Assembly (NCBI RefSeq): GCF_024502345.1
Contig: NZ_JALDNN010000001.1
DNA from: Escherichia coli
GTDB taxonomy: Bacteria; Pseudomonadota; Gammaproteobacteria; Enterobacterales; Enterobacteriaceae
Length of the DNA stretch: 64,000 nucleotides
Strand: one strand, 5' to 3'
Shown: piece after piece, positions 77 to 5,318 of the stretch
Position numbering within the stretch: the first letter of the stretch is position 1
Layout of the letters: every line of letters begins with the position of its first letter
Position numbers and translations under genes: made by a program
Notes under the pieces: generated by a model
Database searches by the model: none
What the model was told of the DNA's origin: nothing
The model's input: only the letters and a program-made list of their open reading frames with translations

Positions 77-397
77 ATGGAAAAGAAACACATTTATCTG
101 TTTTGTTCTGCGGGCATGTCTACCTCTTTACTGGTATCAAAAATGCGTGCACAGGCAGAAAAATATGAAGTTCCGGTCATTATTGAAGCATTTCCGGAAA
201 CACTGGCTGGTGAAAAAGGTCAGAATGCCGATGTCGTGTTATTAGGGCCGCAGATTGCTTATATGTTGCCCGAAATCCAGCGTTTGTTACCCAACAAACC
301 GGTTGAAGTAATTGACTCGCTGCTTTATGGCAAAGTCGATGGTTTAGGCGTGCTTAAGGCTGCGGTTGCAGCGATTAAAAAAGCCGCAGCAAATTAA
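77..397 (+). CDS. chbB: PTS chitobiose-specific EIIB component
   Basis: 106-aa [22 protein letters not shown] with PTS EIIB Cys motif; first gene of chbBCARFG order. Confidence 0.95.
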
Positions 398-481
398 TTT
401 ATTTTAAATTTTCCCGTCAAAGAGTTATTTCATAAATCAATACCGCAATATTTAAATTGCGGTTTTTAAGGGTATTTTTCT

Positions 482-1840
482 ATGAGTAATGTTATTGCAT
501 CGCTTGAAAAGGTACTCCTCCCTTTTGCAGTTAAAATAGGAAAGCAGCCACACGTTAATGCAATCAAAAATGGCTTTATACGCTTAATGCCGTTAACCCT
601 TGCGGGGGCCATGTTTGTATTAATTAACAACGTTTTTCTAAGCTTTGGGGAGGGGTCGTTTTTTTATTCCTTAGGTATTCGCCTCGACGCCTCAACCATT
701 GAAACACTTAATGGTCTGAAAGGTATTGGCGGCAACGTATATAACGGAACATTAGGGATAATGTCTTTAATGGCACCGTTCTTTATTGGCATGGCGCTGG
801 CAGAAGAGCGTAAAGTCGATGCGCTGGCGGCTGGGTTGTTATCCGTTGCAGCATTTATGACCGTCACCCCATATAGTGTCGGTGAGGCCTATGCGGTTGG
901 CGCAAACTGGTTAGGTGGGGCGAATATCATCTCCGGGATTATTATTGGCCTGGTGGTGGCAGAAATGTTTACCTTTATTGTCCGCCGCAATTGGGTCATT
1001 AAACTGCCCGACAGCGTACCTGCTTCAGTATCGCGTTCCTTCTCGGCATTAATTCCCGGCTTTATTATTCTTTCCGTGATGGGGATTATTGCCTGGGCGT
1101 TGAATACCTGGGGCACCAACTTCCATCAGATCATTATGGATACCATCTCAACCCCACTGGCATCGTTGGGTAGCGTGGTGGGCTGGGCCTATGTGATCTT
1201 TGTTCCACTGCTCTGGTTCTTCGGTATTCATGGCGCGCTGGCGCTGACCGCACTGGACAACGGCATTATGACGCCGTGGGCGCTGGAAAATATCGCGACC
1301 TATCAGCAATATGGTTCCGTCGAAGCGGCGCTGGCAGCCGGTAAGACCTTCCATATCTGGGCCAAGCCGATGCTGGACTCCTTTATTTTCCTTGGGGGCA
1401 GTGGTGCGACTTTAGGCCTGATCCTGGCTATCTTTATCGCCTCTCGCCGTGCTGATTATCGTCAGGTGGCAAAACTGGCGCTGCCGTCCGGCATCTTCCA
1501 AATTAACGAACCGATTCTGTTTGGTCTGCCAATTATCATGAACCCGGTGATGTTTATCCCGTTTGTACTGGTACAACCGATTCTGGCGGCAATCACCCTG
1601 GCAGCGTACTACATGGGCATTATTCCTCCGGTGACCAATATTGCACCGTGGACCATGCCAACCGGTCTGGGAGCCTTCTTTAACACCAACGGTAGCGTCG
1701 CCGCATTGCTGGTTGCACTCTTCAACCTTGGTATCGCAACGTTAATTTATCTGCCCTTTGTTGTGGTGGCTAACAAAGCACAAAACGCGATTGATAAAGA
1801 AGAGAGCGAAGAAGATATCGCTAACGCCCTGAAATTTTAA
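482..1840 (+). CDS. chbC: PTS chitobiose-specific EIIC permease
   Basis: 452-aa hydrophobic multi-pass ORF; position between chbB and chbA. Confidence 0.95.
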
Positions 1841-1890
1841 TCGATGCCGGTACGGGTAATCGTGCCGGTAAGAATAGAGAGGAACGATGT

Positions 1891-2241
1891 ATGATGGATC
1901 TCGATAATATTCCCGATACGCAAACGGAAGCTGAAGAGCTGGAAGAAGTGGTGATGGGGCTTATCATCAACTCCGGACAAGCGCGCAGCCTGGCGTATGC
2001 GGCACTGAAACAGGCGAAGCAGGGCGATTTTGCCGCAGCAAAAGCCATGATGGATCAGTCACGGATGGCATTGAATGAAGCACATCTGGTACAGACGAAA
2101 CTGATTGAAGGCGATGCGGGCGAAGGTAAGATGAAAGTGAGTCTGGTGCTGGTCCACGCTCAGGATCATTTAATGACGTCCATGCTTGCGCGTGAACTGA
2201 TTACCGAATTAATTGAGCTTCATGAAAAACTGAAAGCATAA
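1891..2241 (+). CDS. chbA: PTS chitobiose-specific EIIA component
   Basis: 116-aa ORF; EIIA lactose/cellobiose family; operon context. Confidence 0.95.
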
Positions 2242-2248
2242 GGAGTCG

Positions 2249-3091
2249 ATGATGCAGCCAGTGATTAACGCGCCGGAAATTGCCACTGCCCGAGAACAGC
2301 AGTTGTTTAATGGCAAAAACTTCCATGTGTTTATCTATAACAAAACTGAGAGTATCAGCGGACTGCATCAGCACGACTATTATGAATTTACTCTGGTATT
2401 AACCGGGCGTTATTTCCAGGAGATTAACGGTAAGCGCGTGTTACTGGAACGGGGCGATTTTGTTTTTATTCCGTTAGGTTCGTACCATCAAAGTTTTTAT
2501 GAGTTTGGTGCCACGCGCATATTGAACGTTGGGATCAGTAAACGCTTTTTTGAGCAGCATTACCTGCCATTGTTGCCTTATTGCTTTGTAGCTTCGCAGG
2601 TATACCGGACCAATAACGCTTTTCTCACCTATGTGGAAACAGTGATTTCTTCATTGAATTTCCGCGAAACAGGGCTGGAAGAGTTTGTTGAGATGGTTAC
2701 TTTTTATGTCATTAACCGTTTACGTCATTACCGCGAAGAACAGGTGATTGATGATGTACCGCAGTGGCTGAAAAGTACGGTAGAAAAGATGCATGATAAA
2801 GAGCAGTTTAGTGAATCGGCGCTGGAGAATATGGTGACGTTGTCAGCCAAATCACAGGAATATTTGACGCGGGCGACTCAACGATATTATGGCAAAACGC
2901 CAATGCAGATTATTAATGAAATCCGTATTAATTTTGCCAAAAAACAACTGGAAATGACCAACTATTCAGTGACGGATATTGCGTTTGAGTCCGGTTATAG
3001 TAGCCCGAGTTTGTTTATTAAAACGTTTAAGAAATTAACGTCCTTTACGCCTAAGAGCTATCGTAAGAAATTGACTGAATTTAATCTGTAA
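2249..3091 (+). CDS. chbR: AraC-family dual regulator of chb operon
   Basis: 280-aa ORF with C-terminal AraC-type HTH; operon context. Confidence 0.95.
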
Positions 3092-3194
3092 GTCGTTATA
3101 CCTGACAATTCACATATCTGTCCTGTTGCTGGATTATTTATGTCCGGGGGGCAGATATGCCAGATATCAGTATTCTGTACTGAAGGGAGAAATT

Positions 3195-4547
3195 ATGAGC
3201 CAGAAATTAAAAGTCGTCACTATTGGTGGCGGGAGCAGCTATACCCCGGAGTTACTGGAAGGATTTATTAAGCGTTATCACGAATTGCCGGTCAGCGAAT
3301 TATGGCTGGTGGATGTCGAAGGTGGCAAAGCTAAACTGGATATTATTTTCGATCTCTGCCAACGGATGATTGATAACGCTGGCGTCCCGATGAAGCTTTA
3401 TAAAACGCTGGATCGCCGCGAAGCATTGAAAGATGCTGATTTCGTTACTACCCAACTGCGCGTAGGCCAATTACCGGCGCGCGAACTGGATGAACGTATT
3501 CCGTTAAGTCATGGTTATCTTGGTCAGGAAACCAACGGCGCGGGCGGTCTGTTTAAAGGTCTGCGTACCATTCCGGTGATTTTTGACATCGTAAAAGATG
3601 TCGAAGAACTTTGTCCGAATGCATGGGTGATTAACTTCACTAACCCGGCGGGAATGGTCACTGAAGCCGTTTATCGTCATACCGGATTTAAACGTTTTAT
3701 CGGCGTGTGTAATATTCCGATCGGCATGAAGATGTTTATTCGCGATGTTCTGATGCTGAAAGACAGCGATGATTTATCTATCGATCTGTTCGGCCTCAAC
3801 CATATGGTGTTCATTAAGGATGTGCTGGTAAATGGCAAATCTCGCTTTGCCGAATTACTTGATGGTGTGGCATCCGGGCAGTTAAAAGCATCTGGCGTTA
3901 AAAATATTTTCGATCTGCCATTTAGCGAAGGCTTAATTCGTTCTCTGAATCTGTTGCCGTGTTCTTATTTGCTTTATTACTTCAAGCAAAAAGAGATGCT
4001 GGCTATTGAAATGGGCGAATACTACAAAGGCGGCGCACGAGCGCAGGTAGTACAGAAAGTCGAGAAACAACTTTTTGAGCTGTATAAAAACCCGGAGTTG
4101 AAAGTTAAGCCGAAAGAACTGGAACAGCGCGGTGGGGCTTATTACTCTGATGCAGCGTGCGAAGTGATCAACGCTATCTACAACGACAAGCAAGCAGAAC
4201 ATTACGTTAATATCCCGCATCATGGGCATATTGATAATATTCCGGCAGACTGGGCGGTAGAAATGACCTGTACGCTGGGGCGCGATGGCGCGACGCCACA
4301 TCCGCGCATTACGCATTTCGATGATAAAGTGATGGGGCTGATTCACACCATTAAAGGCTTCGAGATTGCTGCCAGCAACGCCGCACTTAGCGGAGAATTT
4401 AACGATGTGTTACTGGCGCTAAACCTTAGTCCGTTGGTGCATTCCGATCGCGATGCTGAGCTGCTGGCACGCGAGATGATTCTGGCGCACGAGAAATGGC
4501 TGCCAAATTTTGCCGACTGCATCGCAGAGCTTAAAAAAGCACATTAA
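3195..4547 (+). CDS. chbF: 6-phospho-beta-glucosidase (GH4, NAD/Mn dependent)
   Basis: 450-aa ORF from MSQKLKVVTIGGGSSYTPEL (GH4 N-terminal NAD-binding motif); ORF-track upstream start 3126 rejected. Confidence 0.93.
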   Translation: MSQKLKVVTIGGGSSYTPELLEGFIKRYHELPVSELWLVDVEGGKAKLDIIFDLCQRMIDNAGVPMKLYKTLDRREALKDADFVTTQLRVGQLPARELDERIPLSHGYLGQETNGAGGLFKGLRTIPVIFDIVKDVEELCPNAWVINFTNPAGMVTEAVYRHTGFKRFIGVCNIPIGMKMFIRDVLMLKDSDDLSIDLFGLNHMVFIKDVLVNGKSRFAELLDGVASGQLKASGVKNIFDLPFSEGLIRSLNLLPCSYLLYYFKQKEMLAIEMGEYYKGGARAQVVQKVEKQLFELYKNPELKVKPKELEQRGGAYYSDAACEVINAIYNDKQAEHYVNIPHHGHIDNIPADWAVEMTCTLGRDGATPHPRITHFDDKVMGLIHTIKGFEIAASNAALSGEFNDVLLALNLSPLVHSDRDAELLAREMILAHEKWLPNFADCIAELKKAH

Positions 4548-4559
4548 CCGAGGCTGATT

Positions 4560-5318
4560 ATGGAACGTTTACTGATTGTTAATGCCGATGATTTTGGCTT
4601 AAGCAAAGGTCAGAACTACGGCATTATCGAGGCCTGTCGCAATGGGATTGTCACATCGACGACGGCGCTGGTGAATGGGCAGGCTATTGACCATGCGGTG
4701 CAGTTGAGTCGTGATGAACCGAGTCTGGCCATAGGGATGCACTTTGTCCTTACTATGGGCAAGCCACTGACAGCTATGCCGGGGTTAACCCGCGATGGTG
4801 TGCTGGGAAAATGGATCTGGCAGTTGGCAGAAGAAGATGCTTTACCGCTGGAAGAAATTACTCAGGAGCTTGCCAGTCAGTATTTGCGTTTCATTGAGCT
4901 ATTTGGACGCAAACCTACGCATCTTGATAGCCATCATCATGTGCATATGTTCCCGCAGATTTTCCCTATTGTTGCCAGGTTTGCGGCTGAAGAGGGGATT
5001 GCGTTGCGCATCGACCGTCAGCCGCTATCTAACGCTAGTGATTTACCGGCTAATCTGCGCAGTTCGCACGGATTCAGTAGCGCGTTTTATGGTGAAGAGA
5101 TTAGCGAGGCACTGTTCCTGCAAGTGCTTGATGATTCCAGCCATCGCGGGGAACGCTCGCTGGAAGTCATGTGCCATCCGGCGTTTGTCGATAATACGAT
5201 TCGCCAGAGTGCTTACTGTTTCCCACGGTTAACGGAGCTGGAAGTGCTGACATCAGCGTCGTTGAAATATGCAATTGCTGAGCGTGGTTATCGGTTGGGT
5301 AGTTATCTTGATGTGTAA
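4560..5318 (+). CDS. chbG: Chitooligosaccharide deacetylase (YdjC family)
   Basis: 252-aa [24 protein letters not shown] (YdjC-like); last gene of chb operon. Confidence 0.9.

Follow-up and report, generated by a model that had tools for sequence, protein, structure and literature searches.

We analyzed a 64,000-nucleotide (nt) stretch of Escherichia coli DNA (assembly GCF_024502345.1, contig NZ_JALDNN010000001.1; the whole stretch is hereafter called the window), which carries the chitobiose operon chbBCARFG near its start. Listing of the open reading frames (ORFs) over window 1–7000 gave six co-oriented genes on the plus strand, arranged in the order IIB, IIC, IIA, regulator, glycoside hydrolase family 4 (GH4) hydrolase and YdjC deacetylase. 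The first three encode components of the phosphotransferase system (PTS): chbB (77–397) enzyme IIB of 106 amino acids (aa), chbC (482–1840) the enzyme IIC permease of 452 aa, and chbA (1891–2241) enzyme IIA of 116 aa. They are followed by chbR (2249–3091), an AraC-family dual regulator of 280 aa, chbF (3195–4547), a GH4 NAD-dependent phospho-beta-glucosidase of 450 aa, and chbG (4560–5318), a YdjC-family chitooligosaccharide mono-deacetylase of 252 aa. The spacers between the six genes measure 84, 50, 7, 103 and 12 nt. For chbF we used the ATG annotated in E. coli K-12, the mechanical ORF reaching upstream to a TTG at 3126. Downstream, katE (5365–7626, minus strand, 753 aa in the ORF listing) converges on the operon. 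This map agrees with the annotations of K-12 and of E. coli FDAARGOS_943.

The products were assigned with family models. Five of them exceeded the cut-offs of their NCBIfam equivalog models: ChbB with 226 bits (NF007796, cut-off 157), ChbC with 972 (NF007634, 760), ChbA with 241 (NF007768, 148), ChbR with 582 (NF007633, 264) and ChbG with 402 (NF002559, 227). The Pfam domains PTS_IIB, PTS_EIIC, PTS_IIA and YdjC were found in ChbB, ChbC, ChbA and ChbG, respectively, and ChbR showed an N-terminal Cupin_2 domain (residues 28–81) and a C-terminal double helix-turn-helix (HTH; HTH_18 at 202–273, and HTH_AraC). The NCBIfam library used holds no equivalog model for ChbF; its orthology follows from 98.9% identity to the K-12 protein (5 of 450 residues differ) and from both GH4 domains, Glyco_hydro_4 (259 bits) and Glyco_hydro_4C (163 bits). 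The family E-values of the chb products range from 6e-68 to 2.8e-293, which rules out a chance pattern. ChbB, ChbC and ChbA are identical to the K-12 proteins, their genes differing by 1, 9 and 5 nt, all synonymous, and the gene lengths equal those of K-12 except in chbG (252 aa here, 249 aa in K-12). ChbB keeps Cys10, its phospho-acceptor, and ChbA keeps His89.

The initial annotation of this DNA had placed six intact chb genes in this order at 77–5318, and the ORF map, NCBIfam, Pfam and the K-12 comparison confirm it to the base. A disrupting mutation was looked for in each gene: neither the ORF map nor the K-12 alignment showed a frameshift, an internal stop or an insertion sequence (IS) in any of the six, and all frames are full length. 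Judged from its sequence, we are highly confident that the locus is the ordinary chbBCARFG operon of E. coli, that it is complete and that it very probably functions. Promoter and terminator scans of the operon gave hits no more numerous than in shuffled sequence, and we claim no internal promoter. No Rfam family was found in window 1–5500 even at E <= 1; the ChiX sponge described below corresponds to no Rfam family.

The operon is found in nearly every E. coli. By megablast with window 1–5400, the chb locus was present in 5425 of 5426 complete E. coli genomes, at 80% coverage or more in 5389 of them, and was almost always single-copy and chromosomal; the chb segment is thus core genome. The whole window is collinear with K-12 MG1655 from 1,821,695 to 1,757,288, at 97.5–99.2% identity and with no islands.

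Between chbR and chbF, the spacer (3092–3194, plus strand) holds the chbF ribosome-binding site GGGAG, and its sole difference from K-12 is a run of six G here, where K-12 has seven, at about 3146. ChbF, which is annotated in K-12 as monoacetylchitobiose-6-phosphate hydrolase, matches the solved 6-phospho-beta-glucosidases 5c3m and 1s6y at E of about 1e-149, and the exact allele of the window occurs on at least 1000 contigs. As a separate observation, chbF contains a mosaic patch at 3695–4094, with 25 differences from K-12 in 400 nt.

ChbG aligned without gaps, residues 1–252 to 1–252, with the Klebsiella pneumoniae ChbG structure 7VI8 (E 7.5e-125), and keeps D10, D11, H61, H125, H206, S217 and R223. 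Among these residues, D11, H61 and H125 are metal ligands, and D10 and H206 are catalytic (PMC9402603). The 3′ half of chbG, from about 4895, is about 14–16% divergent from K-12 at the nucleotide level and includes a 9-nt indel; the K-12 protein is three residues shorter, and about 12% of the positions in its C-terminal half are different. The possibility that the 252-aa ChbG is an aberrant extended form was considered and ruled out by the outgroups: the sequences examined from E. fergusonii, Salmonella, Citrobacter and Klebsiella have 252 aa and that from E. albertii 254 aa, and all five outgroup proteins are nearer to the C-terminal half of the window ChbG than to that of K-12. These comparisons suggest that the 249-aa K-12 ChbG is probably the derived form. 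Variation in this part of the operon is wide: when the last 419 nt of chbG were compared in 5423 genomes, identity to the window was at least 99% in 494, 95–99% in 1198, 90–95% in 1652 and 80–90% in 2079. The segment 4895–5364, comprising the 3′ half of chbG and the chbG-katE spacer, is a diversity hot spot of E. coli, with haplotype classes 5–16% apart.

The 46-nt spacer between chbG and katE contains a strong hairpin at 5324–5360. The RNA fold of 5310–5375 reached −31.3 kcal/mol (z −5.3), and none of 200 shuffles folded as well; the hairpin is probably a bidirectional terminator serving the convergent chbG and katE, as its predicted structure suggests. The corresponding K-12 spacer measures 257 nt and, in our own reading of its sequence, contains palindromes resembling repetitive extragenic palindromic (REP) elements; the window lacks these and about 211 nt of spacer. 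This K-12 spacer is probably also a derived form. Since both chbG and the chbG-katE spacer of K-12 are probably derived, K-12 serves poorly as a reference for judging whether the 3′ end of the operon is intact.

At the other end of the operon, the spacer between chbB and chbC (398–481) contains the sponge, or trap, site for the small RNA ChiX at 413–433 (plus strand), made of CCCGTCAAAGAG (413–424) and ATTTCAT (427–433). With the ChiX sequence taken from the K-12 record, the two segments are perfectly Watson-Crick complementary to ChiX nt 38–59, giving 12 and 7 bp round a 2×2 loop. The 12-mer occurs only once in the window, and the whole spacer, sponge included, is identical to that of K-12. 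Scanning the operon with ChiX in RNAduplex, with no constraint set, did not discriminate, since long spurious duplexes elsewhere scored better; our assignment was therefore based on the exact complementarity of 12 + 7 nt. The RNA from the chbBC intergenic region sponges ChiX, promotes its decay and lifts the repression of chiP, the chitoporin gene, as summarized in a passage of PMC7815308 citing Overgaard 2009; the same sponge has also been taken as a design template (bioRxiv 10.64898/2026.05.19.726096). The chbB-chbC spacer is also a functional RNA element, the ChiX sponge, which the initial annotation had left out of its account of the operon.

Just upstream of chbC, the same spacer shows a second structure at 443–467 (plus strand), a hairpin with an 8-bp stem (443–450 with 457–464) followed by a short U run. 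The RNA fold of 398–481 gave −12.5 kcal/mol (z −2.1), a weak signal. The 443–467 palindrome, identical to that of K-12, was also found by the terminator scan, on the opposite strand, and the hairpin may act in processing, stability or partial termination.

The initial annotation had named the upstream region and chbR as the places to look for activating changes, by alignment to a reference. In this alignment ChbR differs from K-12 at four residues, as treated below, and the 76 nt upstream of chbB are identical to K-12 but apparently consist of leader only. These 76 nt (window 1–76, plus strand) match K-12 positions −76 to −1, all positions being counted from the chbB ATG, at 100%, and make up the 3′ portion of the 5′ untranslated leader of chbB; we recognized neither a promoter nor a regulator site within them. 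In K-12 the osmE-chbB spacer is 298 nt long, and by our own motif reading it holds a box resembling a NagC site (−229 to −210), the CAP-like sequence TGTGA-N6-TCATA (−198 to −183), direct repeats AGGTCAA for ChbR (at −177 and −154) and TATACT, which resembles a −10 element (−119 to −114). We presume these motifs to be the sites reportedly described by Plumbridge and Pellegrini in 2004 (cited in PMC3551598). Because the motifs span −229 to −114 and the window begins at −76, the window holds only the leader, if our motif reading is right. The 76 upstream nt thus appear to be 5′ untranslated region only, and the chb promoter with its NagC, CAP and ChbR sites probably lies upstream of the window.

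Near relatives of the strain allowed us to look further upstream. Near-identical loci were recovered by exact look-up of the window ChbG protein, and seven relatives (L002 and L004–L009) were compared. Over the shared stretch, up to 9 kb, a single base separates L007 and L008 from the window, 5767 in katE, where the window has A and all seven relatives have G; by manual reading of the minus-strand codon the change is synonymous (Leu, CTT here and CTC in the relatives). In L004, L006 and L007, used as a proxy, the osmE-chbB spacer is 298 nt long as in K-12 and carries the same motifs, with five single-nucleotide polymorphisms (SNPs) relative to K-12 at −295, −238, −206, −179 and −165. The SNP at −206 (G>A) falls between the NagC-like box and the CAP-like site, and those at −179 and −165 flank or fall inside the region of the ChbR direct repeats. 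No IS insertion was found in this spacer of the three relatives or in the 76 nt of the window. The promoter haplotype of the lineage (L007 2160–2330) is matched at 100% in only 2 of the 5426 complete genomes, FDAARGOS_943 and FDAARGOS_944. The former (NZ_CP065615.1) is also the nearest complete genome to the window, at 99.9% over 5.4 kb with 4 nt differences; it lacks the ChbR replacement A248S, and its ChbG differs from that of the window at residues 75 and 160.

The four replacements in ChbR relative to K-12 are H79Y (codon 2483–2485), A197T (2837–2839), A248S (2990–2992) and Q280L (3086–3088), all on the plus strand. Their frequency was taken as the number of complete genomes having the 61-mer that carries the variant. 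H79Y was found in 22 of the 5426 genomes, Q280L in 2 and A248S in none; A248S was present in L004, L005, L007 and L008. At position 197 both alleles are common, Thr appearing in most sequences sampled from the E. coli cluster and the K-12 allele on at least 1000 contigs. H79Y, Q280L and A248S are nested within a small lineage, on a common T197 background, and the exact 280-aa protein is on record once (WP_256632777.1). The replaced positions also vary among relatives. Ser stands at position 248 in 22 of 129 aligned ChbR sequences, Citrobacter and Kosakonia being named among them, as well as in the window allele, and also at the aligned position of a Listeria AraC-type HTH protein (PDB 3oou). 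Asn occupies position 79 in 91 of the 129, Salmonella included. Across relatives the protein ends in Gln, Glu, Leu or Arg, and in close relatives three alleles of the last chbR codon were seen (CAG, CTG and CGG).

No activating change was detected in chbR by comparison with K-12. N238 and N137, which we take to be positions of Cel+ (cellobiose-using) ChbR mutants, are both unchanged in the window. Full-text literature searches gave no match to H79Y, A248S or Q280L, the substitution tables of Kachroo 2007 and of Parker & Hall 1990 lying outside this comparison.

Several points weigh against the reading of a functional operon under an ordinary regulator. As the chb promoter probably lies outside the window together with the sites for NagC, CAP and ChbR, competence for expression cannot be read from this sequence. 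Relative to K-12, chbR shows an excess of replacements, with 4 nonsynonymous and 2 synonymous codon differences against 5 and 47 in chbB, chbC, chbA and chbF combined (Fisher p = 0.004, on small numbers), and three of the four ChbR replacements are seldom seen in E. coli. One of these, H79Y, falls in the cupin domain, which binds ligand, and adjoins H80, which in our own motif reading is the His of the second cupin motif, and may thus have an effect on the response to ligand. Moreover, the sibling assembly L004 (GCA_001484235.1), otherwise only 2 differences from the window in 9 kb, carries a nonsense codon in chbR, with TAA for TAT at codon 111 (Y111*, equivalent to window 2581), which divides the gene into ORFs of 109 and 149 aa.

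Two other explanations of the rare allele can be considered. The first is that H79Y, A248S and/or Q280L are a natural gain of function that widens inducer recognition, like that of laboratory Cel+ mutants. Three nested rare replacements in chbR, with none in ChbB, ChbC or ChbA, would fit such a change, as would the place of H79Y in the cupin domain beside H80, and the replacement of one amino acid in ChbR is among the documented ways to become Cel+ (PMC13267602, PMC4488073). However, laboratory Cel+ strains additionally require the loss of NagC repression (PMC4488073). In laboratory Cel+ alleles an IS insertion in the regulatory region, or the loss of NagC, goes with a specific gain-of-function substitution in ChbR; the spacer of the relatives has no IS insertion, and nagC lies outside the window. 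Moreover, Ser248 is wild-type in other genera, positions 79 and 280 vary between genera, and relaxed constraint explains the excess of replacements equally well. We consider this gain of function very unlikely; under it, the strain would grow on cellobiose, or its operon would be induced with no need for deacetylation by ChbG. Equally improbable in our view is that the nested series of H79Y, then Q280L, then A248S, together with the lineage-specific promoter SNP of the relatives, records a natural adaptive change in inducer specificity; if true, it would mean a clone of wild E. coli able to use cellobiose, or to answer another chito-oligosaccharide, without laboratory selection.

The second explanation, that chbR is under relaxed selection or decaying in this lineage, would leave the regulator partly impaired and the operon poorly inducible or mis-regulated in spite of its open frames. 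The ratio of nonsynonymous to synonymous differences in chbR as compared with the rest of the operon, the three alleles of its last codon among close relatives, Y111* in L004 and the rarity of the lineage promoter haplotype all point in this direction. On the other hand, the four replacements are conservative or at naturally varying positions, ChbR still scores more than twice the cut-off of its equivalog model, and the downstream genes are under strong purifying selection, which would be unexpected if the operon were never expressed. We hold decay to be even less likely than the gain of function. The excess of replacements is read here as weaker constraint on the regulator and not as evidence of activation, and we judge the rare ChbR allele most likely to be neutral. 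The strain should therefore behave as E. coli typically does, chitobiose-positive and, until mutated, cellobiose-negative.

The working of the operon can be proposed from established knowledge of K-12, carried over to the window from the near-identity of the two loci. ChbB, ChbC and ChbA would form a PTS permease of the lactose/cellobiose family that imports and phosphorylates N,N′-diacetylchitobiose; ChbG would then take off one acetyl group, and the GH4 enzyme ChbF would hydrolyze the resulting monoacetyl-chitobiose-6-phosphate. Without inducer ChbR would repress, and with inducer it would activate, together with NagC and CAP, at a promoter that probably lies a short way before the first base of the window; for this operon such dual regulation, shared with NagC and CAP, has been described (PMC3551598). 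When the operon is transcribed, the RNA of the chbB-chbC spacer would pair with ChiX and promote its decay, with derepression of chiP as a result, and the hairpin shared with the convergent katE would end the transcript. The initial annotation had also stated that in K-12 the operon is cryptic for cellobiose and that mutations of the promoter or of ChbR activate it. This agrees with the literature, in which the operon, otherwise silent for cellobiose, becomes active once NagC no longer represses it and ChbR is altered, and in which K-12 is activated through insertions that lie ahead of the promoter or through alterations of ChbR or NagC (PMC13267602, PMC4488073). The natural substrate is chitobiose, and therefore the operon is not cryptic as such. 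The locus, a textbook one and near-universal in E. coli, is intact here and has little importance beyond its correct annotation; as to the rare ChbR allele of the strain, an altered sugar response would be cheaply testable.

Elsewhere in the window we noted the following. The gene ydjO is split into overlapping ORFs of 165 and 125 aa (8349–9165, plus strand) by an extra A at 8836, in a run of eight A here and seven in K-12, where ydjO encodes 267 aa. The two-ORF pattern is also present in L005–L009, and the split may be a lineage pseudogene, a phase-variable-like slippage or a recurrent homopolymer error. In the region of arpB, a pseudogene in K-12, there is an ORF of 544 aa (16736–18370, minus strand), with 1-nt indels relative to K-12 at 16777 and 17929. 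Four RNA families reached the Rfam gathering score, each where synteny with K-12 would place it: the Phe leader (pheM) at 22188–22312, STnc540 at 26152–26310, RprA at 50984–51091 (minus strand) and RydB at 56520–56580. In the ydiJ-ydiK spacer (about 52565–52573) K-12 has about 183 nt extra, which may be another insertion of the REP type.

Compared with known systems, the locus closely resembles chbBCARFG of K-12 MG1655 (b1738–b1733, formerly celABCDF-ydjC), which has the same gene order, orientation and spacing, with katE convergent downstream and osmE upstream, the latter position being seen here in the relatives; nucleotide identity between the two chb segments is 97.5% over 5.3 kb. ChbG of K. 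pneumoniae (7VI8) also has 252 aa and carries D10, D11, H61, H125 and H206 at the same numbering as in the window. Its identity to the window protein is about 70–75% by inspection, and some non-catalytic residues differ, for example L66, which is M66 here. With regard to the circuit formed by ChiX (MicM) and the chbBC spacer in E. coli and Salmonella, the window has the sponge, and chiX and chiP are located in other parts of the genome.

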